Shown here one piece after another: positions 1,925-33,518 of a stretch of 38,673 nucleotides of DNA. Both the position numbers and the translations under genes were made by a program. The notes beneath the pieces were generated by a model that did no database searches, was not told the origin of the DNA, and was given only the letters and a program-made list of their open reading frames with translations. Position 1 is the first letter of the stretch; every line of letters starts with the position of its first letter. Source of the stretch: an uncultured Burkholderiales bacterium (GTDB taxonomy: Bacteria; Vulcanimicrobiota; Xenobia; Xenobiales; JADMJV01); NCBI GenBank assembly GCA_964423525.1, contig CAYRFU010000001.1, positions 278 to 38,950 of the forward strand, written 5' to 3'.

Positions 1925-2320
1925 ATGAATGGCCACGAGATCCTGGAGCGCCCATCCCCATGGGACAAGCTAGGCATCCTCATATCAGGGGCTTGCTTAC
2001 TTCACTGCGGCCTGGTGCCGGTTCTCTCTATCCTTCCGGCTATCGGCGCCCTCAAGTCTGAGCACGAAGGGCTTCATCATCTCCTCTTGAGCCTGGCTCT
2101 GCCTGTTGCTCTTTTGGCCCTGATTCCGGCTGTCAAGAAGCACGGCAAGCTTGAGATTATCATCTTCGCTGGTCTGGGCCTTCTTCTCTTGGCCGCAGGT
2201 CTCGTTTTCCACGCCCTAGAGCAGCCTCTCACCCTGGCTGGCGCGGCTCTGTTGGGTCTGGCCCACATCGAAAACTGGCGGAGCTGCCGAGTTCAACGCG
2301 GCGACTGCTGCGACCACTAA
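1925..2320 (+). CDS. MerC-domain membrane protein (putative metal uptake)
   Basis: WDKLGILISGACLLHC motif, about four TM helices, His cluster HEGLHH, AHIENW, C-terminal CCDH. Confidence 0.85.
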   Translation: MNGHEILERPSPWDKLGILISGACLLHCGLVPVLSILPAIGALKSEHEGLHHLLLSLALPVALLALIPAVKKHGKLEIIIFAGLGLLLLAAGLVFHALEQPLTLAGAALLGLAHIENWRSCRVQRGDCCDH

Positions 2321-2337
2321 CTCGAGCGCGAAACGGC

Positions 2338-2421
2338 CCGACAAAACAGAAAGGGGTTCGGCTTGGACAACGCCTAAGGCAGGTTGTGCTAGAAGTCCCT
2401 TAGAGTTCGCTGTTTTGGCGG
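2338..2421. other. Long imperfect intergenic hairpin (about 84 nt)
   Basis: Nested complementary segments CAAAACAG/CTGTTTTG, AAGGG/CCCTT, TTC/GAA, ACAAC/GTTGT and GCC/GGC around a TAA loop. Confidence 0.4.
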
Positions 2422-2425
2422 ACGG

Positions 2426-2460
2426 AAAAAGCCCCGGGCGACTGACCGACCGGGGCTTCT
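2426..2460 (-). terminator. Intrinsic terminator downstream of the lipoprotein gene
   Basis: Stem AAGCCCCGG (2429-2437)/CCGGGGCTT (2450-2458) followed by a T run on the minus strand. Confidence 0.8.
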
Positions 2461-2485
2461 AATCTAAGGTTATGCCAGAAATCGC

Positions 2486-3313
2486 TTAAGGTTGCGTGCC
2501 GGTAGTGCCACCGCCACCAGTGGTGCCACCACCCGTGGTTCCTCCACCGGTGGTTCCTCCACCGGTGGTTCCGCCACCGGTCGTTCCGCCACCGGTCGTT
2601 CCACCACCGGTCGTTCCACCACCCGTGGTGCCACCCGTGGTGCCCAGACTGTTGGAAGCATTGTTTACGAGCGTCTGAGTATTCGCGTCGGTCACAGTCG
2701 AACCGTTGGCGTTAGTCCAGGCAGTCGAACTCTGAACGTTGGTGTTCACCTGGTTCAGCAGGGCCTGGGCCGCAGCGTCCGTTCCAGCGCGGACAACGTT
2801 CTCAAGAGCGGCAAAGTTGACGGTGCTGAGGTTCCCGTTGCCAGACTCCAGGCCGATCAAAGTTGCCGTGGTGGTAGCCGCGTCGATCACTCCGGTGGTG
2901 CCGCCACCAGCCGTGCGGACGGTCTGGAAAACGACTCCCGGGGTGGCCGTAGTGGCCACGAAACGAAAGACTCCTGAGGGAAGATTGTTGAAACTCACCG
3001 CCCCGTTGGCGTTAGTGGTGGCCGTTGCCACAACCTGGTTAGCCTGGTTGTAGACCGTCACCGTCGCGTTAGGGATCGTGAACAGTTGCTGAGCATAGGC
3101 TGGAGTGAAAAGGACTCGGGTCACAGCATAGACCCGACCTTGCGGGGCGATCGCCACCTGCTGAGCCCCGGGAGTGCCAGCAGGGACTCTGAGGTTTAGA
3201 GTAGTGCCCGTTCCCTGGACCTGATTAAAGACAAATTCGTCGTCGTCACTCCCACAAGCGTAGAACAGTGACAGCAGGGCCAAGAGAGCCACTGATACTG
3301 TAAGTTTCTTCAA
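2486..3313 (-). CDS. Lipoprotein with a beta-sandwich (prealbumin/CarboxypepD_reg-like) segment and a C-terminal (GGGTT)n tail
   Basis: AAGGAGG RBS before TTG; signal peptide MKKLTVSVALLALLSLFYA-C20; NATVTVYNQANQVVATATTNANGAVSFNNLPSG pattern; Gly/Thr tail. Confidence 0.8.
   Translation of the reverse strand: MKKLTVSVALLALLSLFYACGSDDDEFVFNQVQGTGTTLNLRVPAGTPGAQQVAIAPQGRVYAVTRVLFTPAYAQQLFTIPNATVTVYNQANQVVATATTNANGAVSFNNLPSGVFRFVATTATPGVVFQTVRTAGGGTTGVIDAATTTATLIGLESGNGNLSTVNFAALENVVRAGTDAAAQALLNQVNTNVQSSTAWTNANGSTVTDANTQTLVNNASNSLGTTGGTTGGGTTGGGTTGGGTTGGGTTGGGTTGGGTTGGGTTGGGGTTGTQP
2498..2645 (-). repeat. Coding tandem repeat, 15-nt unit encoding GGGTT (10 Thr-Thr pairs)
   Basis: Repeated CCACCGGTGGTT-like units with synonymous variation between copies. 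Confidence 0.9.
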
Positions 3314-3324
3314 AACATCCTCCT

Positions 3325-5670
3325 TTAGTCTAAACCGATACGAACCTTTGAAGGGGGGCTGTTCACCCTACAGAACTTATTCTCCTTCAGGAGGAAGAGC
3401 TGAAGGTCGTAAAGACCTTTCGTAATCGGAGTGGCTACGGGAATCGTCAAAACCAAACTTTCTTGGGGACCTACTCTCGGCAAAGTCACCACCATCATCT
3501 CCCGCCTCTCGGGCGGCTCCCCGAAACCGTAAGCTAGCCTGGTGCCTGGCGAGATCGGATCGGGTTCTAGATTGGTCAGACGAATGGTGACGTCGGTCGA
3601 GAAACCTGTCGAATAGGAGTCCTGACCGAGCCATTCCACCTGGAGAGAATCTTGCGGAGCACCAAATTCCTCCGGCCAGGAAAGCCTCGGCCTGTCGACC
3701 CGAAACAAGCTCCAGCTGGGAGTTCGTTCAACCTCTTCGACTCCCTCGAGCTCCCTTAGCCTGGCTCGCGTCTTGTCAAAGCCGATGTCTTGTCTCAGAT
3801 AAATCCAGTCAGGCTCAAGCAGGTCGAGGGCGGCTGGGTCGAATCCTTTCCAGAAAGCTCGAGCCAGGGCTGACATATGATAAGGCGGTGTCCCCACCGG
3901 TTCTCCGTCAAGAGGTAGAGAGTGACCCACCAATCGTAACCCGGTCCAACCCGAAAGCGTCGATTGAAGATGGATCGACGATGGGGCCTCGTGAGGAAAG
4001 TTGACCAACAACGTTTGACCCGGTCGACTTAGCTGACGGAGACGTTCAGCGGCCTCAAGGTCCATCGGGTAGAAACGGGTCTTCTCGGCGTTGAGGCGTA
4101 ACCAGGGCTTGGCCTTCAAAGGCAGCAGAAGAAGCGGGCGATAGCTGTAGCGAGCCCAGCCCTGGACGGCCCTGGGCAGGAACAACTTGAAGAACGGATA
4201 GATACACAACCCTACCAGAAAGAGAGCCAGGGCGGTCGAGACCCAACCGTAACGACGACCCTGGGCCTGCTCGACCAGCTTACCCAGGGCGCTCCCCAGC
4301 ACGTAAGCGAATCCCAGCCCGGCAGCGTACTGCCAACGATAGTATTCGAATTCGTAAATGGGTCCGAAATTCACCAGCCCCGGTGTCACGAAAGCCCCTA
4401 CTGCGAACAACCCTATACTGAGCCCAACCACTTCTCGCTCTCGCCACAGGAGAAACAGAGAGAAGGGAGCCAAATAGGTAGCGAGCCAGTGGATTTGAAG
4501 CACATCCCAGGACCACAAGGGTCGATACGGTGTGCCTGCAGCGATGGGAGCATAGTCGGTCAGAAAAGGATACACCCGGTAGGCACATGAGACCCTCTGA
4601 TAATCTCCGTAACCCAGCTGGAGTTGGAACAGTTCTCGCTTGGGGAACTTCAAAACCACCACCTGCCTCTGGTTCATCTCACCCTCTGACAGCGAAACTG
4701 ATGAGGGGGCGCTCCCCACCAGCCGTTTGGCCAACTTGGTGATCGGCCCCCCCTGAGTGGCTGCCAGGAGACCAGCCAGAGCGAAGGCTAATCCAAGACC
4801 TCGGAGAGGCTTCTTCGAGAAGGCAGCAGCGACCAGCGCTACCACCAAGACGATCATCAGGAGACCGAAATGGGTCTCGTAAACGGCAGCCAAACTGCCA
4901 AGAGCGAGCCCAAGGGCCACCCCCCGAGGCTTGTTTTGCGGCGCTTGCCAAACCAGATAAAGAAGATAAACCGTCAAGATCAGATAAAGATGGACAACGG
5001 CGTTGTTATTCTGGAAACAATCGAGGGCCCCGGCTCGTCCGCCCACGTTGATCCCAAAAAAGACCAGGGTGGTCCCTCCCACTGCTCGCGCCTCTGAACC
5101 CGTGGCAGACACGGTCAAACCAAAGAGCAGACCCAGAGCCAGAAGGGAAGCCAAAGTTGTCAACGACGTTTGAACGGCAAAGATCTTGAACCCCGTCAGG
5201 ATAGACAAACTGGATATCAAAAGGTCCCGTCCGTAGTGTCCATTCATCACGATATCCGGGAAAAAGGGGTGGGAGGGAGGCAAGTTCCCCAAAGCCATCA
5301 GGGATTGGAGTGGAGTGTGAACCCAGTAATCATCGTCGGGGGTCAGATTCTGATTCAGGTTCAGGAAAGCGAACGCGAAAAATCCCAACGTTATCAGCCA
5401 CACCAGACCCCATCGGGAGACGCCCACGGGCTGGAAAGCCGGTCGCGGCCAACCCAACCAGCCAGCCAAGCCGAGCAGCAACTGAACCACCAGTGCGGCC
5501 CAGGCCGCCTCTCGAACAGTGAGAAACTGACCTAGACCGTTGGTCAAGGTAAGAAAGAGCACCAAAGCGAAGGCCACCCCTCCAAAGACCGCTGTAAGTC
5601 GGTTAGAATCTTGAAGAGGTCCCCGAATCAACCCGTAGCCCGTGAACGAAAGTAGCGCCAAGATAACCAT
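3325..5670 (-). CDS. Polytopic membrane protein, putative GT-C glycosyltransferase with a C-terminal soluble (Ig-like) extension
   Basis: More than 10 hydrophobic segments; acidic PDDDYWVH motif in a loop after the N-terminal helices; extensive motif identity with 5686..7680; function is inferred. Confidence 0.65.
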   Translation of the reverse strand: MVILALLSFTGYGLIRGPLQDSNRLTAVFGGVAFALVLFLTLTNGLGQFLTVREAAWAALVVQLLLGLAGWLGWPRPAFQPVGVSRWGLVWLITLGFFAFAFLNLNQNLTPDDDYWVHTPLQSLMALGNLPPSHPFFPDIVMNGHYGRDLLISSLSILTGFKIFAVQTSLTTLASLLALGLLFGLTVSATGSEARAVGGTTLVFFGINVGGRAGALDCFQNNNAVVHLYLILTVYLLYLVWQAPQNKPRGVALGLALGSLAAVYETHFGLLMIVLVVALVAAAFSKKPLRGLGLAFALAGLLAATQGGPITKLAKRLVGSAPSSVSLSEGEMNQRQVVVLKFPKRELFQLQLGYGDYQRVSCAYRVYPFLTDYAPIAAGTPYRPLWSWDVLQIHWLATYLAPFSLFLLWREREVVGLSIGLFAVGAFVTPGLVNFGPIYEFEYYRWQYAAGLGFAYVLGSALGKLVEQAQGRRYGWVSTALALFLVGLCIYPFFKLFLPRAVQGWARYSYRPLLLLPLKAKPWLRLNAEKTRFYPMDLEAAERLRQLSRPGQTLLVNFPHEAPSSIHLQSTLSGWTGLRLVGHSLPLDGEPVGTPPYHMSALARAFWKGFDPAALDLLEPDWIYLRQDIGFDKTRARLRELEGVEEVERTPSWSLFRVDRPRLSWPEEFGAPQDSLQVEWLGQDSYSTGFSTDVTIRLTNLEPDPISPGTRLAYGFGEPPERREMMVVTLPRVGPQESLVLTIPVATPITKGLYDLQLFLLKENKFCRVNSPPSKVRIGLD

Positions 5671-5685
5671 CGGACCGACCTTTAG

Positions 5686-7680
5686 GTGCGCCTGGACGTG
5701 ATCTCCTTCTGGCTGGTCCCCACCCTCTTGACTTTTGCCTGGTGGCTTCCCGAAAAACTTTATGGGTTGGTCGGCTGGGAAAGGCTACCCTTAGGTGTCT
5801 CTAGCACTCTCTTCTCTACCCTTTTTCTGGTCAATCTCGGACTGAGATTAGGCCTGCCGTGGAACGGCTCTCTGATCGTCTGCGGCGCAATCCACCTTCT
5901 TCTTATCGCGGCCCTCTGGAAAACCCAAGCCCCGGAACCTGAGACGTCCGAAATCTCCTGGCTAGAAGCCTCACTTCTTCTGGGCTTTTGCTTGATGGTG
6001 GTGATGGTAACCAACGCCGGCCAGTTGCACTCGCCAGACGACGATTATTGGCTTCACACCCCTCTACAAGCCCACCTAAAAGACGGTTCCTTTCCGCCTC
6101 TCAACCCCTTCTTCTCAAACCTGGAACTCAAAGGACACTACGGTCGAGACCTGCTGATCGTGATCGGGGCGAAAGTGCTAGACCTCAACCTGACTCGCTC
6201 TCAATGGTGGCTCACCACAACCTGCCAAACCCTGACCGCACTCCTTCTCTTTGCCCTTTTCAAAGGCTACGGACGGCATCCCTACTCGGCCTGGCTCGCG
6301 CTCCTTTTCGCCTTCCTCGGCGTGGGAGTGGGTTACAAAGCCGGACTGCTCGATCTCTACCAGAACAACTCCGGCCCCCTTCACCTCGGTTTCTTTCTGC
6401 TGGTGACCCTCTTCTTTCGCTGGCTCGAAAAACCGACCCTTGCCAGGGCTATTCTGTTGAGCCTCACACTGGCCACCTACGCTTTCGTCTATGAAACCCA
6501 TTTCGGTCTTTTTCTGATCGCCTGTCTTCCCCTGGTCGCTCATCAACGCGTTCGACTCTCGCAACTGACCCCGGCTTTTCTGCCGGCCCTCCTCCTGGCC
6601 CTGGTTCACGGTGGTGTCTTCACCGATCTAGCCCAGCGAAGTCTTAACCCCGCCCCCACCGACTCGAGCCTACTGAACCAGTCGCAAAGAGCCAGCCTCA
6701 CCTTTCCAAAACCCCAATTCCTCCAACTCAGGATGGCGCAGGGAGAACTGCAGCCCATCTCCTGCGCCTACAAAGTTTGGCCAGGCAGACTCGCTTTCCG
6801 TCATCTCGATCATCAACCTCGGAGGCAGGACCCTGTCTACGTATCGATCTTCTCCTGGTATGTCTTACGAATGCACTGGTTGCCTCTCGTTCTTTCCCCT
6901 TTGAGCCTCTGGGTGGCGATAGAATCTCGCGACCGGCTGGGTCTTTTCTTCTGGCTCTTCGGAGCGGCGGCATTCCTGGTTCCGGGCCTGGTCCACTTCG
7001 GCCCTATCCATGAATGGGAATACTTCCGTTGGGAATTTGCCTGTGGACTGGGACTGGCGCTAGCCCTGTCTCAAGCCTTGGCTCAAATCGCTTCCGAAAG
7101 TCGATTAGCGACGGCCACGACGATGCTGCTGGTCGCCCTCACGGTCAGTCCAGGATTAGCCCAGCTTGGCCAAGCCTCCACCCAGATCAGCTCGTTGGGA
7201 CCCTTGAGAACCGCCAGCCTCGGCCTCTCTTACCCAGAGTGGCTTCGGCGCCATCGCCAGAGTCTTTATCTGCAGCCTGGCGACGTGGAAGCCCTCGGTC
7301 GCCTGAAACCACTGGTCACCCCAGGCCAAACCGTACTGGTGAATTTCGAACCAGACCAACCTTGGTCGATCCTCTTCGAAAGCACTCTTGCCGGCGTGAC
7401 TGGTCTCTATCCAGTGGGCCACCAGCTCCCACGACCCGAGGATCCAGTGGGCCTTCCCCCTCACCGGATGAGCCAGCAGGCCCAAGATTTTCTCGAGAAG
7501 CCCGAAACCCAAACCCTGAAGGCCCTCGATTTCGACTGGCTTTATCTTCGTCGTAACCGTCTTGCATCAGAGACCATAGCCGCCTTCTCGAACCTTCCCG
7601 AACTCGAACTCCGAGTCCAAGTCGAGAGGCCGGGAGCCCAGGTCTTGATTTTCAAGCGCAAAAAAACCCGGGTCGACTGA
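5686..7680 (+). CDS. Polytopic membrane protein, putative GT-C glycosyltransferase, paralog of 3325..5670 (start may be GTG at 5698)
   Basis: PDDDYWLHTPLQ, GHYGRDLLI, YETHFGL, FGPI.E.EY.RW and PGQT.LVNF shared with the neighbour. Confidence 0.65.
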   Translation: MRLDVISFWLVPTLLTFAWWLPEKLYGLVGWERLPLGVSSTLFSTLFLVNLGLRLGLPWNGSLIVCGAIHLLLIAALWKTQAPEPETSEISWLEASLLLGFCLMVVMVTNAGQLHSPDDDYWLHTPLQAHLKDGSFPPLNPFFSNLELKGHYGRDLLIVIGAKVLDLNLTRSQWWLTTTCQTLTALLLFALFKGYGRHPYSAWLALLFAFLGVGVGYKAGLLDLYQNNSGPLHLGFFLLVTLFFRWLEKPTLARAILLSLTLATYAFVYETHFGLFLIACLPLVAHQRVRLSQLTPAFLPALLLALVHGGVFTDLAQRSLNPAPTDSSLLNQSQRASLTFPKPQFLQLRMAQGELQPISCAYKVWPGRLAFRHLDHQPRRQDPVYVSIFSWYVLRMHWLPLVLSPLSLWVAIESRDRLGLFFWLFGAAAFLVPGLVHFGPIHEWEYFRWEFACGLGLALALSQALAQIASESRLATATTMLLVALTVSPGLAQLGQASTQISSLGPLRTASLGLSYPEWLRRHRQSLYLQPGDVEALGRLKPLVTPGQTVLVNFEPDQPWSILFESTLAGVTGLYPVGHQLPRPEDPVGLPPHRMSQQAQDFLEKPETQTLKALDFDWLYLRRNRLASETIAAFSNLPELELRVQVERPGAQVLIFKRKKTRVD

Positions 7681-7691
7681 CCCGGGTCTTT
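7660..7691. terminator. Probable bidirectional terminator between the membrane-protein gene and groEL
   Basis: A7 run, stem ACCCGGGTC/GACCCGGGT with a 4-nt loop, then CTTT; overlaps the TGA at 7678-7680. Confidence 0.8.
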
Positions 7692-7708
7692 GATGGGGTA
7701 AGGCTGGC

Positions 7709-9367
7709 TTAGAAGCCGCCCATTCCACCCATTCCGCCCATTCCGCCCATTCCGCCCATGTCAGGCATATCGGGGGTTGCGCCTTTCTTCTCGGGCTTCT
7801 CGGTAACCAGGGTCTCGGTGGTGAGAACCATTCCAGCGATCGAGGAGGCGTTCTGAAGAGCCGACCGGGTAACTTTAACCGGGTCAACAATACCGACTTT
7901 GACCATGTCGACATAGTCGTCGTTGAGAGCGTCGTAGCCGTGACCTTTTTTGAGGCCTTTGACTTTCTCGACGATCACAGCGCCTTCTTTACCGGAGTTG
8001 TTGGCGATCTGACGAAGAGGCTCGACCAGGGCGGCGCGGATGATCTCCACTCCAACCATTTCGTCGGCGCTCAGGCCTTTGATCTTATCCAGCACGGAAA
8101 GAGCGTTGATGAAGGCGGTTCCGCCACCAGCAACGATTCCTTCTTCAACAGCAGCGCGAGTAGCCGAGAGGGCATCTTCGATGCGGTGCTTCTTCTCTTT
8201 GAGTTCGGTTTCGGTGGCGGCACCGACGCGGATGAGAGCCACACCGCCGACCAGTTTGGCCAGGCGCTCTTGCAACTTCTCCCGCTCATAGTCGCTGTCA
8301 GTGTCGTCGATCTGACGCTTGATCTGCTCGATGCGGCCTTTGATGTCGGCGTCTTTGCCAGCCCCTTCGACGATGGTGGTGTCGTCTTTGGTGACTATCA
8401 CTTTGGTGGCCTTACCGAGCATGTCAACGGTCACTTTGTCGAGCTTGAGACCGAGGTCTTCAGTGATGACCTGACCACCGGTGAGGATGGCGATGTCTTT
8501 GAGCATTTCTTTGCGGCGGTCGCCAAAACCAGGGGCTTTAACAGCACAAGCGGTCATGGTGCCGCGTAGCTTGTTCACCACCAGGGTAGCGAGGGCTTCA
8601 CCTTCGATGTCTTCAGCCACGATGAAGAGAGGCTTCTGAACCTGAACGACTTTTTCGAGCAAAGGCAAGATGTCGGAGATGGCCGAGATCTTCTTCTCCA
8701 CGATGAGGATGAAGGGGTCGTTGAGGACCGCTTCCATGCGCTCACTGTCGGTCACGAAGTAAGGGGAAATGTAGCCTTTGTCAAACTGCATCCCTTCAAC
8801 GTGCTCGAGGTCGGTCGAGAGGGTCTTGGACTCTTCGACGGTGATGACGCCGTCTTTGCCGACTTTCTCGATGGCTTCCGAGATGAGACCACCGATCTCT
8901 TTGTCGTTGTTAGCCGAGATAGCGGCCACCTGGGTGATGGCGTCGCCGGTTTCGACCGGGGAAGCCATCTTCTTGATCGCTTCAACCACTTTCTCGACGG
9001 CCAGGTCCATACCCCGCTTGATGAACATCGGGTTGGCACCAGCGGTCACGTTCTTGAGGCCGGTCTTGATCATGCTCTGGGCCAGAACGGTAGCGGTGGT
9101 GGTTCCATCACCAGCGATGTCGTTGGTTTTGGAAGCGACTTCCCGAACCAACTGGGCACCCATGTTTTCGAAGGGGTCTTCCACTTCGATCTCTTTGGCG
9201 ACGGTGACGCCGTCTTTGGTGATGGTGGGGGAGCCGAACTTCTTGTCGAGCACCACGTTGCGACCGCGGGGGCCGAGGGTGATCTTGACGGCATTCGCCA
9301 GAATGTCGGTTCCACGCTCGAGAGCTTTTCGGGCGTTCAGGTCATACTTGAGAATCTTAGCTGCCAT
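7709..9367 (-). CDS. groL: Chaperonin GroEL
   Basis: [47 protein letters not shown]-repeat tail. Confidence 0.99.
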
Positions 9368-11277: not shown

Positions 11278-12030
11278 CTAAAAGGTCTCTTCAGGAGCGG
11301 AGTTCACCACTTTCTTCTTGAGACGTCCCGAGGTCAACACCCACAGACCTTTGACCCGCTCCACGGTATAGACGCCAAGGTAGGGGACATCCTTCCCACC
11401 CTCGTCGGCCACCATCGAGACGTCCACTTGGAAACGGTCCTCCCCTAATTCCACCACATTGATGATCTCGCTTCGCAAGCGGGTGGTTTTGGAATAACCG
11501 TCGGTAAACTGGGCGTAGGATAGCTCCCGCTTCCAATCTGGGGAGAGATGAGTATAAGCGCTCGAGAAGTCCCGACGAGACACGTTCTCGTAGAAATTCA
11601 TCACCTTCTCCTCGGCGGCTGAGGGAGTCTTGAGATTGGCTGGCCGGGTAAAGGTGAGATAGCGGCTTTCGACCCAGGCTTGAGTTCCATCCTCGAGAGC
11701 GACCTGGTCCCAATTGTCCGACTCCCCGAGCCAACGCACCTCCTCCCACCGACTCATAGTTTTCACCTCAGCCATATTCAGGCCCGCCTGTTGACGCGCG
11801 ACCACGCCATCCTCAGTGATCCAGGCTACTTTCAAGCGGGGCTTGTCGCTGGTTGGAGGAACGACCGGGCCAGTCGCTCCTCCAGTAGAGCTACTGGGGG
11901 GCGGTGGGCCGGGTTGGTCAGGGCCATCGCCCTGACCCACCTTGACAGCATAAAGAATCAGGGCGATCACAGCTATCGCTCCCAGAAAGGCCCCCAACCA
12001 GACTACCGAGGAACCCCGCGATGATGCCAC
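11278..12030 (-). CDS. Membrane-anchored SH3b-domain protein with an NTF2-like C-terminal region
   Basis: N-terminal TM helix, Pro-rich linker, WDQVALEDGTQAWVESRYL (SH3b-like), FYENVSRRDFSSAYTHLS. Confidence 0.65.
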   Translation of the reverse strand: MASSRGSSVVWLGAFLGAIAVIALILYAVKVGQGDGPDQPGPPPPSSSTGGATGPVVPPTSDKPRLKVAWITEDGVVARQQAGLNMAEVKTMSRWEEVRWLGESDNWDQVALEDGTQAWVESRYLTFTRPANLKTPSAAEEKVMNFYENVSRRDFSSAYTHLSPDWKRELSYAQFTDGYSKTTRLRSEIINVVELGEDRFQVDVSMVADEGGKDVPYLGVYTVERVKGLWVLTSGRLKKKVVNSAPEETF

Positions 12031-15931: not shown

Positions 15932-17317
15932 TCACAATCCTGCCCGAAAGTGGCCGTGAAAGCCGAAGGGAATGGCGTCAGGAACTTCGGCTCGAGCGAC
16001 TTCCTCCAGGCTGTCGGCAGCCAGCACCACCAGGTAAGAGAGGCCCCGCTCTCCGTCGAGCACTACCGCCAGCAGCACTCCGTCGCCCTCTTCGGTGGCT
16101 CCGGGACGTGGCACGAAGACCGGTTCGCCCGGGAAGCAGTCCGACTCTTTCCAGATTCGACTCGATCGCTCTTTCAAGTCCAACCGCACGATCTGATCGT
16201 AGAACCCTGGCGAGCGACTCATTCCGATTCCGAAAACAAACCGATAGTCGCGCCCCTGGCAGCGCTGGTAGTCAATGGTGGGAAGCTCAAGAAACTCTTG
16301 CGACTCCCACTCCAGGTAAGCTCGCCCGTCGGCCAAACGGTAGCGATGGAACCGACCGGGGCGAACGGGGGCCTCCTGACGTAGCTTGGAGAGATAGAAA
16401 TCGGAGACCACCTGACTGTCGGGGTAGCCGACCATATCGACCACCACCTCACCTTTTTCGCGAAACGAGTTGACATGGTGAAAAGCGAACACCGAAGGCC
16501 CCCAGTAGCAGTCAGTGTGGCCCCTCTTCCAATCGGCCACTTCGAATAAGGTTCCCCTCTCCGGCTTCCAACGATAATTCTCGATGAATGGTCGGCGTCG
16601 GAAAAGTAGCTCGAGGGGGCTAACGCAGAACGGGAAATTGGCCAACACGATAGTATTAGGAGCCATCCCAAAGCTATGAACATAGCTGACCTCGTGCTTG
16701 GGTAGAGTCACCAGGCTGCGCCTTCGGTGTTGACCCGGATCGAGAGCGTAAAACGTGAAATCTGTGTGTCTCCCGAAACGCAGCACGTAGTTGACCAGTG
16801 AGCCTTCCACCAGGTGGGGGTGGGCGGTAGTCATCCCTTCGCCGAGCTGATCTTGATAGTGGAAAACTCCCACCGTCTCCAGCGTTTGCGGGTCGAACTC
16901 GATCGGCATCGGAAGCTCGGTCAGAGCTAGTTCCTTCTCGCCCAGAGTGACCAGATTGACGTTAGGGTTCTGAGTCACATCAGGCACAAAAAGAGCCTTG
17001 AGCCGGCGAAAAAGTGACCAGCATGGGTCACTAGCGAAAGTGGGAAAGGGGATTCTTCCGTCCTGATCGGAGCGACGATAATCGAGACTGCGCAAGAAAC
17101 GGCGGGAATAGGAAATCTGGCTGTTCTGGAGACGGAAGCGATGGACCAAGGCTAGCCCGTCAAACCAGTGACGAAAAGATTGCTCCCCAAGGTCCCAACG
17201 ACCCGGACCGTTGCGCAAAAGCGTGCCCTGGAGCCAGCCGGGCAGTTGGCCCTGCACCTCCAAAGAGATCGGCTGGGCGAGTTCCTGGGCATTCTGATAG
17301 CCGAGGGAGTAGCCCAT
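15932..17317 (-). CDS. Carotenoid oxygenase family protein (RPE65/BCO-like)
   Basis: GQLPGWLQGTLLRNGPG and HWFDG; four Fe-ligand His in TAHPH, YVHSF, FHHVN and FGFHG; EPVFVPRPGATEEGDG. Confidence 0.95.
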   Translation of the reverse strand: MGYSLGYQNAQELAQPISLEVQGQLPGWLQGTLLRNGPGRWDLGEQSFRHWFDGLALVHRFRLQNSQISYSRRFLRSLDYRRSDQDGRIPFPTFASDPCWSLFRRLKALFVPDVTQNPNVNLVTLGEKELALTELPMPIEFDPQTLETVGVFHYQDQLGEGMTTAHPHLVEGSLVNYVLRFGRHTDFTFYALDPGQHRRRSLVTLPKHEVSYVHSFGMAPNTIVLANFPFCVSPLELLFRRRPFIENYRWKPERGTLFEVADWKRGHTDCYWGPSVFAFHHVNSFREKGEVVVDMVGYPDSQVVSDFYLSKLRQEAPVRPGRFHRYRLADGRAYLEWESQEFLELPTIDYQRCQGRDYRFVFGIGMSRSPGFYDQIVRLDLKERSSRIWKESDCFPGEPVFVPRPGATEEGDGVLLAVVLDGERGLSYLVVLAADSLEEVARAEVPDAIPFGFHGHFRAGL

Positions 17318-32342: not shown

Positions 32343-33518
32343 CTAAGACATCATCTTGGAGGACACGTCGGCCAGGGGTAACAAGACGCTGAGCACCAAC
32401 GTTCCCACCATGACTCCCATGAAGAGAATCAAAGCCGGCTCGAGGAAGCGGGTCAAGATTGCCCGGCGACGCTCTAGCTCTCTCTCATAGAAAGAGGCGG
32501 CCGAATCGAGCATAGGGGAAAGCTCTCCAGTCCGCTCACCCGTCTTCAAGAACTGCTGAAGCAGGGGTGGAATCAGATAGATTCGACCGATCGAGACAGC
32601 CAATCCGTCGCCGCGTTCAACCGCTTTCTCGGCTCCGGCAAGCTCCCGTTTCAGGGCCTCGTTCTCGAGTGACTCACGGGACAGCTGCATAGCCCTGACC
32701 AGGGGCACCCCGGCAGCGTGGAGCATCCCCAAAGTCCGAGCCCACTGCTCCATCAGGCCACAGGACAACATGGGCCCCAACAGAGGAAGGCCAAGACGCC
32801 AACGGTCGAGAGTGACTCGAGGCATCATCCGAAGTCCGAGCAAAAGGGTGGCCACGCCGCCGATCAGCACGAACAGACCAAACCCCGTGAGAGAATTCCC
32901 CATCCAGACAATCCACTTGGTTAACCAGGGGAGTTCGATGTCGAGGGCCCCATACATCTCCTCCAGGACGGGCGTGAGAAAGTAGAGCAAGCCCATCAAC
33001 AAAGCGATGGAGAGGGTAATCAAAACGATAGGGTAACTCAAGGCCCCTACCAAAGCTTGGCGGTGCTCAATGTCACGCTTAAGATAATCGGCATAACGGC
33101 CAATGATCTCAGCCGGCTGACCCGACTCCTCTCCGGCCTGGACCATTCTCACCAACATGGGAGGAAAGGCCTGCTCCTCAGCCATCGCGCCGGTCAGCGA
33201 GTCCCCCTCCCGAAGCTTAACTCGAACCCGACGCAAAGCACTGCGCATTCGAGGGTCTTCGTCAAACTCAGCCAGAGACTCGAGAGCCTCGTCAAGAGGA
33301 ATGCCCGAGCGGATGAGAGCGGAAAGCTGTTGCAAGGAGTAGGCTAACGACTCGCCAGCGGCGGCCTGCTTGGAGTTTGAGACCTCAACGTTAACCTGGA
33401 TAGGAAAAAGACCCCGAGCCTTAACCTTCTGATAGGCCACCGATTGGCTGGCAGCGTCGACCAGGCCGTTGACCTGCTTGCCGCGATGGTCAGTCGCGAC
33501 ATACTGATAAAGAGGCAT
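32343..33518 (-). CDS. gspF: Type II secretion system inner-membrane protein F
   Basis: MPLYQYVA, QLSALIRSGIPL, MVQAGEESG, ALSYP, GERTGEL, LEPALILFMG. Confidence 0.93.
   Translation of the reverse strand: MPLYQYVATDHRGKQVNGLVDAASQSVAYQKVKARGLFPIQVNVEVSNSKQAAAGESLAYSLQQLSALIRSGIPLDEALESLAEFDEDPRMRSALRRVRVKLREGDSLTGAMAEEQAFPPMLVRMVQAGEESGQPAEIIGRYADYLKRDIEHRQALVGALSYPIVLITLSIALLMGLLYFLTPVLEEMYGALDIELPWLTKWIVWMGNSLTGFGLFVLIGGVATLLLGLRMMPRVTLDRWRLGLPLLGPMLSCGLMEQWARTLGMLHAAGVPLVRAMQLSRESLENEALKRELAGAEKAVERGDGLAVSIGRIYLIPPLLQQFLKTGERTGELSPMLDSAASFYERELERRRAILTRFLEPALILFMGVMVGTLVLSVLLPLADVSSKMMS

Follow-up and report, generated by a model that had tools for sequence, protein, structure and literature searches.

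Does a small gene cluster from an uncultured bacterium encode a dedicated system of protein O-glycosylation together with its own acceptor? The question is raised by a stretch of 38,673 nucleotides (hereafter, the window; contig CAYRFU010000001.1 of assembly GCA_964423525.1, positions 278 to 38,950), in which a first-pass annotation had proposed that two paralogous membrane enzymes glycosylate an adjacent lipoprotein with a threonine-repeat tail. We refer to these proteins as P0001 (781-aa enzyme), P0002 (664-aa enzyme) and P0003 (275-aa predicted lipoprotein), to the source genome as G000 and to another genome of the same genus as G001. Our favored reading, held with slightly less than even confidence, is that the trio represents a mobile enzyme-plus-client cassette for protein O-glycosylation, the Gly-Thr tail of P0003 being the acceptor. 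The genome belongs to the class Xenobia, of which we know no cultured member.

Two Predicted GT-C Enzymes

P0001 and P0002 are 39% identical over 556 aa (BLASTP; E 3e-92). The ten sequence motifs that had been noticed in both proteins each occur once in P0001 and once in P0002, in the same order, but they are not specific to this pair and run through the entire family. No Pfam family was found in either protein, NCBIfam returned one match at E 0.1, and sequence searches of the PDB with P0001 and P0002 (single and profile) yielded nothing significant. AlphaFold2 models were built from alignments of 83 rows (P0001) and 18 rows (P0002) and reached pLDDT values of 94.4 and 92.3, respectively. The best 19 Foldseek matches of the P0001 model were all GT-C enzymes. 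The VIA search, which is independent of Foldseek, was headed by GT-C-fold chains for both proteins (first 18 rows for P0001 and 17 rows for P0002, including GPI-transamidase subunits). The P0001 model scored highest in this search with AglB (Z 18.4; root-mean-square deviation [rmsd] 6.5; 431 aligned residues), STT3B (18.3) and ArnT (17.8), followed by ALG12 (16.6), Pmt2 (16.5) and AftA (16.4), and a second VIA look gave Z scores of about 20, up to 20.1, with yeast and human STT3. The P0002 model matched ArnT (16.6) and STT3B (16.2). These searches bear out the GT-C fold anticipated for both proteins, which we predict to be members of the GT-C superfamily. Since the VIA scores are close to one another and the identities are 7–14%, the fold names the superfamily and not the family.

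The topology of P0001 was deduced from its 14 hydrophobic helices: the Lys + Arg values of the loops alternate without exception, from about 1.5–3.2 inside to 0–1.05 outside. The acidic motif D112-D113-D114 (DDD) follows helix 86–109, and the value is 3.1–3.2 for the preceding loop and 0.5–0.75 for the DDD loop. By the positive-inside rule the DDD loop is predicted to be external, as had been expected. E265, the long loop 306–395, E440/E442/R445 and the C-terminal domains are also predicted to be external, and all conserved polar residues fall in predicted external loops. Across 244 family sequences, the position of D114 is Asp in 233, and H118, E265, E442 and R445 are conserved in 217, 224, 228 and 241, respectively. 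The domain at residues 531–659 matches the C-terminal domains of AglB and PglB (Z 9.5 and 8.3).

An acidic motif after the first core helix constitutes the catalytic site of GT-C enzymes, as passages of two reports describe for D55 of ArnT and D77 of Pmt1 (PMC6801728, PMC7801869). D114 would fall on ArnT D55 if the VIA range, which pairs model residue 85 with chain residue 26, is ungapped. R445 lies at the start of the penultimate transmembrane (TM) helix and probably corresponds to the phosphate-binding Arg of GT-C enzymes, judging from its position rather than from a residue-level superposition. Parts of PMC10265970 describe D128, an Arg on the penultimate helix and extra N-terminal helices in AftA; counterparts of these features are predicted for P0001. 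Both P0001 and P0002 retain complete catalytic motifs. R445 was also considered as a marker of monophosphate donors, which was dropped because oligosaccharyltransferases (OSTs) carry the same Arg.

A Predicted Lipoprotein with a Repetitive Tail

The N-terminus of P0003 consists of MKK, a hydrophobic stretch and F-Y-A-C20-G-S-D, a non-canonical lipobox; by inspection, we predict that P0003 is a lipoprotein lipidated at C20. A prealbumin-like beta-sandwich (PF17802) was detected above cut-off at residues 80–130. The C-terminal tail comprises 21 Thr and 29 Gly and is encoded by a 15-nt tandem array of 8.1 copies. It is the sole Gly/hydroxy-residue C-terminal tail among the 6,420 called proteins of G000. 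We confirmed its ten Thr-Thr pairs, as well as the 11 bp that separate P0001 from P0003 and the strong ribosome-binding site (RBS), where AAAGGAGG precedes the TTG start of P0003. This RBS overlaps the stop codon of P0001, an operon-like coupling which suggests that the two genes are likely co-transcribed. Our search for homologues of P0003 found none at near length; at longer length, it retrieved one paralog and generic SdrD-type repeats. The paralog (581–595 aa; contig C11) has no tail and is encoded beside an LptF/G gene. P0003 contains 4 sequons versus 4.8 expected. Two other Gly/Thr low-complexity proteins of G000 are encoded away from family genes (G000:C113:6195-7847 and C508:2742-3437).

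P0001 and P0002 are arranged head-to-head, with 15 bp between their first start codons, or 27 bp with an alternative P0002 start that has a better RBS (GTG at 5698). As the two genes are divergent, the trio is not one operon and only P0001 can share a transcript with P0003. A promoter scan of positions 2200–8000 found no sigma-70-type promoter and did not flag two hairpins that bound the trio. These hairpins have 19/22 nt in common, and their core has one further match (1 mismatch) in 7.3 Mb. The slot between groEL and merC is occupied by the trio in G000 and by an unrelated lipoprotein, with no GT-C gene, in G001. The position of the trio between related hairpins in a variable slot suggests its joint arrival, although short two-copy repeats can be due to chance.

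Enzyme-Lipoprotein Clusters in Related Genomes

Our profile search retrieved 747 representatives of the enzyme family at E <= 0.001 and 172 at <= 1e-30, the named relatives being records of Vulcanimicrobiota or Ca. Xenobia. The family was found in 32/44 genomes of the class and 34/301 genomes of the phylum (two candidates per genome scored). Many genomes have one match, G001 has 10 and G000 has 8; two contig-end pieces of G000 match two halves of one relative, and G000 therefore probably has 7 genes. The family had been presented as uncharacterized, and this view stands: it has no Pfam or NCBIfam match, and no description was found in the literature searched, subscription journals and supplements lying outside that search. 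The available part of PMC9259500 has no occurrence of "glycosyl."

In a quick tree, a 771-aa gene of G001 joined P0001 (support 98) as part of a wider clade (99); P0002 was sister to a paralog on contig C426 (98) within a short clade (98). Other placements, including those of G035:C313 and L065 below, were made with FastTree. The C426 paralog (L002; G000:C426:2166-4979) starts 12 bp after uppP/bacA, the gene of undecaprenyl pyrophosphate phosphatase. The best G001 matches of P0001 and P0002 show 38–42% identity versus 60–62% for two core paralogs, so that P0001 and P0002 appear to be fast-evolving accessory copies. Scanning metagenomes with the P0001-clade alignment yielded 3 loci only.

We then searched for lipoproteins beside the enzymes. 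The linkage to lipoproteins with hydroxy-residue tails proposed earlier does recur, but it involves unrelated or Tyr-tail lipoproteins and not homologues of P0003. An adjacent lipoprotein was found at 3/4 P0001-clade loci with context (the window, G001:C4 and the metagenome locus L065), and a second paralog within three genes at 4/4. In G001:C4, a lipoprotein with a (GGY)9 tail is encoded between two divergent family genes, one of them in the wider clade of P0001. In L065, two lipoprotein genes lie between two family genes, the second of which belongs to the P0001 clade (support 0.84–0.95). Finally, G035:C313 has a gene for a YGGA-tail lipoprotein 68 bp ahead of a family gene, near a probable transposase fragment. 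In the 44 genomes, (GGY)n repeats occur at 2 places and the YGGA repeat at 1, the patterns having been drawn from these very cases. The three tail-bearing lipoproteins present no detectable homology to one another (phmmer; E>0.1). A filter on Thr/Ser-rich windows retained only the window locus and one Met/Ser-rich protein; the Tyr tails emerged with looser and tail filters. Two further family members, P0195 and P0027, have accession numbers two apart on equal-length contigs, which is consistent with the layout of G001:C4, although the intervening gene itself was not observed. In bacterial S-layers, O-linked glycans have been described on Ser, Thr and Tyr residues (PMC2943079).

Core Neighborhoods of the Family

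The neighborhoods of 91 family open reading frames (ORFs) were surveyed under 33 genome labels, which stand for some 31 genomes (one label is duplicated) plus metagenome contigs. Within three genes of family ORFs, we found a degenerate paralog (c1) in 13 labels, another paralog in 11, a methyltransferase in 9, one family of glycosyltransferases of the GT2 type in 8 and a Wzx-type flippase in 5. The best solved relatives of the linked GT2 are ArnC (E 8e-21), GtrB and DPMS. Strong matches to this GT2 are present in 16/44 genomes, all 16 of which carry the GT-C family, and it is missing from other GT-C carriers, including all 10 single-copy g5 genomes. In G000, the GT2 and Wzx genes stand on contig C330 beside GT-C paralogs and not at the window locus; the annotated proteins of the window include neither a GT2 nor a flippase. 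A distant family gene of G048 is part of a WbqC/DegT sugar cluster and is separated by two genes' distance from a member of this GT2 family. The combination of GT2, flippase and GT-C is a known layout of extracytoplasmic glycosylation with polyprenyl-phosphate-monosaccharide donors, as outlined in parts of PMC8035078, PMC11127046 and PMC10920833. Its occurrence at core loci supports this type of donor, and it also makes the case for a glycan acceptor, which we weigh below. Based on the linkage to the ArnC/GtrB-like GT2, the donor is probably a polyprenyl-linked sugar.

Several neighborhoods present further peculiarities. The c1 paralog has about 620 aa (L123:2802-4664 on G000:C330, L036:10529-12475 and L026:10739-12565; hhalign 99.6%) and lacks the DDD, GHYGR, YETH and E.E..R motifs as well as three N-terminal helices. 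At 14/85 family genes, c1 is encoded behind the family gene in the same orientation. We consider c1 a candidate pseudo-enzyme partner, and the conserved pair of the family may be a family gene plus c1. In genera g1 and g3 (L018-L022, L068-L073, L075-L079), genes for a pfa-type polyketide synthase, oleBCD-like proteins and membrane proteins of about 1,020 aa are interspersed in the main GT-C cluster. This layout could possibly reflect a glycosylated long-chain envelope lipid, or it may be inherited synteny only. A GT2, an ArgE/DapE-like deacylase and an AAC(3)-like acetyltransferase are encoded downstream of a family gene of G005 (L070:16703-20000), a set which we take to be reminiscent of acyl-aminosugar donor processing in the Arn pathway. 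In small single-copy genomes (L051, L055, L060, L061 and others), the gene immediately ahead of the family gene encodes a GmhA-like phosphoheptose isomerase in 8/8 labels. Adjoining the distant family gene of G048 on its downstream side, ahead of the GT2, lies a gene for a secreted Thr-rich beta protein of 157 aa (L095:8336-8809), a possible further acceptor.

Competing Explanations

These core loci raise the possibility that the acceptor is an envelope glycan or lipopolysaccharide (LPS) and that P0003 either rides along as a passenger in a variable surface cassette or assists without being an acceptor, an explanation that we regard as quite plausible, if probably incorrect. The linkage to GT2, Wzx and methyltransferase genes, the presence of the GT-C family in all 16 genomes with strong GT2 matches, the sugar cluster of G048 and the clusters beside pfa/ole lipid genes all argue for it. 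LpxC was found in 43/44 class genomes, the longest structural alignment of P0001 is with AftA (484 residues), and such systems are common, as indicated in parts of PMC8035078 and PMC11127046. It leaves unexplained, however, the coupled RBS and why lipoproteins with rare Gly/Thr/Tyr tails are found repeatedly beside the enzymes, and the window contains no GT2 or flippase. On the other hand, several observations count against a cassette that modifies the tail of its own lipoprotein. Most family genes adjoin paralogs, GT2, Wzx or methyltransferases, the signature of glycan decoration, and the true Pmt of G000 (see below) could serve Thr tails. The GGGTT repeat occurs in 1/44 class genomes, compared with 32/44 for the enzyme family; no homologue of P0003 was found in 39 family loci, and weak matches only in 4/40 relatives. 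The lipoproteins of L065 are devoid of a Gly-rich tail. In G001, a tandem pair of a short-clade and a P0001-clade gene is flanked by a hydrolase and a probable GNAT (L033), at a different site from the window and with no adjacent lipoprotein; G000 has these flanks without the pair. Given the lack of P0003 homologues at family loci, the restriction of GGGTT to one genome and the layout of L033, the exact trio is not conserved, although clusters of enzymes and lipoproteins recur in relatives. Both Tyr-tail cases stand beside enzymes of one clade and may therefore be one event. With the discovery case left out, Gly-rich S/T/Y tails were observed in 2/136 direct family neighbors versus 0/7,148 background genes (Fisher test, P = 3.5e-4; 3.5e-4 to 0.019 over 9 thresholds), but the filter was set post hoc, with the cases already known, and most of the background comes from one genome.

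The relation between the two enzymes and the nature of the linkage offer other alternatives. P0001 and P0002 had been suggested to form a pair comparable to yeast Pmt1/Pmt2, and a short-clade gene does lie beside a P0001-clade gene in both genomes of the genus (the window and L033); moreover, passages of PMC10265970 indicate that GT-C enzymes often dimerize (AftA, Emb, Pmt). But the two genes diverge in the window and lie in tandem in G001, the partner of the P0001-clade gene comes from a different clade at G001:C4 and L065, the sister paralog of P0002 stands alone after uppP, many genomes have one copy, and both proteins possess full catalytic motifs. This gene-level evidence speaks against an obligate heterodimeric O-glycosyltransferase, which we consider improbable. 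It is more improbable still that P0001 and P0002 are divergent GT66-like OSTs for N-glycosylation, despite the STT3/AglB chains scoring highest (VIA Z 18–20), the shared C-terminal alpha/beta domain and the sequons of P0003. The OST motif WWDxG was found in 0/244 family sequences, Pfam STT3 gave no match and the PglB model NF050801 scored 11 bits versus a cut-off of 1300. Sequons are not enriched in P0003, nor in 100 lipoproteins and 391 signal-bearing proteins (ratios 0.95 and 1.03).

If the trio is an O-glycosylation cassette, its activity may proceed as follows. The GT2 encoded elsewhere, on contig C330, would load a monosaccharide on undecaprenyl phosphate, as family-wide linkage suggests, and the neighboring Wzx-type flippase would move this donor outward. 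On the outer face of the inner membrane, the GT-C transferases would then add sugars to the tail of P0003: D114 in P0001 and D120 in P0002 are predicted, from fold and position and from the chemistry of known GT-C enzymes, to activate the acceptor hydroxyl, and R445 and R448 to hold the leaving phosphate. P0001, presumably co-transcribed with P0003, would be the likelier enzyme for the tail; P0002 could add a second sugar or serve another target, acting sequentially and not in an obligate dimer. The first sugar could be attached either directly to Thr or to a sugar placed by a separate Pmt. A broader possibility, which we think rather unlikely, is that the Xenobia possess an undescribed O-glycosylation system: an expanded GT-C family of STT3/ArnT shape but without sequence kinship to Pmt or PglL, in which mobile cassettes would pair an enzyme or two with their own lipoprotein, its Gly-rich Thr or Tyr repeat serving as a tail that displays glycans, and in which different clades would be Thr- and Tyr-specific.

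Features of the Locus

The coordinates of the features are listed in Table 1. The window also encodes one T2SS-F/PilC-like protein (32343-33518) and one SH3/NTF2-like protein (11278-12030). Across the whole of G000, we counted 34 T2SS-F/PilC-like homologues and 9 SH3/NTF2-like membrane-anchored paralogs, and because of these numbers both neighbors were dropped as functional links. A carotenoid-oxygenase gene (RPE65 family) is located at 15932-17317.

Table 1. Features of the trio and its boundaries (positions in the window; residues in the protein).
Feature	Position	Strand	Basis
Left boundary hairpin, about -20 kcal/mol, between merC and P0003	2426..2460	.	
P0003, predicted lipoprotein, 275 aa	2486..3313	-	ORF call
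(GGGTT)n tail of P0003, 52 aa, 10 TT pairs, candidate acceptor	2489..2644	-	
P0003 RBS, overlaps P0001 stop codon	3319..3326	-	
P0001, predicted GT-C enzyme, 781 aa	3325..5670	-	ORF call
P0001 C-terminal Ig-like (CARDB/ILRUN-Fw-like) domain, residues 665-781, absent from P0002	3328..3678	-	
P0001 STT3/ArnT-type alpha/beta domain, residues 531-659	C-terminal part		structure model
P0001 R445, last external loop, predicted donor-phosphate binder	4336..4338	-	
P0001 D112-D113-D114, predicted catalytic Asp in first external core loop	5329..5337	-	
P0001 architecture: 3 extra N-terminal TM helices; 11-TM GT-C core, residues 86-506			
P0002, predicted GT-C paralog of short clade, 664 aa, without Ig domain	5686..7680	+	ORF call
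P0002 acidic motif D118-D119-D120	6037..6045	+	
Right boundary hairpin, about -21 kcal/mol, between P0002 and groEL	7661..7691	.	

Significance

Our results define a new family inside the known GT-C superfamily, for which Pfam, NCBIfam and the PDB sequences gave no significant match. We found no description of its habit of forming enzyme-plus-lipoprotein cassettes in the literature searched. These cassettes provide candidate enzyme-acceptor pairs: the tail is (GGGTT)n in the window, and relatives have (GGY)n and (YGGA)n. For GT-C orphans, among them the related families DUF2298, DUF6541 and DUF6077, nothing is harder to assign than the acceptor. If the tails are modified, the cassettes would represent a new route to bacterial protein O-glycosylation, with short peptide tags that might serve glycoengineering. 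If the clades do prove to be Thr- and Tyr-specific, they would offer direct access to the enzymes that O-glycosylate tyrosine, which have been little studied. If the tails are unmodified, the family would still constitute a lineage-specific surface-glycan toolkit.

Comparison with Known GT-C Families

The PMT family (GT39; Pmt1/Pmt2/Pmt4) shares the TM core of P0001 (Z 15.7–16.5; rmsd 4.3–4.8 Å), and the acceptor chemistry proposed here, on a Thr hydroxyl, would match. Unlike PMT enzymes, P0001 has an STT3/ArnT-type C-terminal alpha/beta domain; Pmt chains align to residues 83–510 of the model only and not to its C-terminal domain. The initial comparison with PMT enzymes did not hold at the level of identity, with no PF02366 or PF16192 profile match, no sequence similarity to Pmt and a separate true Pmt in the genome. 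The latter is a compact GT39-type protein of 409 aa on contig C439 (L122:621-1850) that matches PF02366 at E 2e-25 and yeast Pmt1 at E 3e-7, and it is 51% identical to a G001 protein that matches Pmt1 at 6e-13. G000 has 8 PMT_2 matches, and PMT_4TMC matches occur in 20/40 relatives. The C439 gene and the PMT_4TMC matches suggest protein O-mannosylation in an LPS-bearing lineage.

The OSTs STT3, AglB and PglB (GT66; 8agb, 6s7o, 3waj, 5ogl) gave the highest VIA scores with P0001 (Z 15.7–20.1; rmsd 6–7 Å; 420–460 aligned residues), and they resemble it in their TM core, C-terminal alpha/beta domain, acidic first external loop and last-loop Arg. They differ from the family in sequence (9–12% identity) and in the motif WWDxG, whereas the family has three extra N-terminal helices, many paralogs and no sequon enrichment. 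ArnT (GT83; 5f15) and AftA (GT85; 8if8) are also structurally close to P0001 (Z 17.8 and 16.4, respectively): AftA shares the extra N-terminal helices, and the GT2 linked to the family is of the ArnC/GtrB type. In contrast, P0001 and P0002 have no sequence match in the three databases searched and form a cassette with lipoproteins. The nearest uncharacterized families are DUF6541 (PF20176), DUF2298 (YYY, PF10060) and DUF6077 (PF19554), whose predicted models match that of the homologue P0165 with TM-scores of 0.62–0.67. DUF2298 matched 3/39 homologues weakly (E 1.6e-5 to 6e-3). All matches to the three families were below the Pfam cut-off (best, 24.5 bits versus 27.8 for P0049), with none for P0001 and P0002 and none above cut-off for PF10060 in G000. 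The literature found on these families held nothing evidently on function.

Finally, the core loci of the family resemble multi-component systems such as GtrABC, ArnC/EF/T, CsbB-GtcA-YfhO and GT136, which combine a GT2 polyprenyl-phosphate-sugar synthase, a flippase and a GT-C enzyme. Unlike these systems, the family reaches up to about 10 GT-C paralogs per genome, and its accessory copies are accompanied by lipoprotein genes instead of GT2 or flippase genes.

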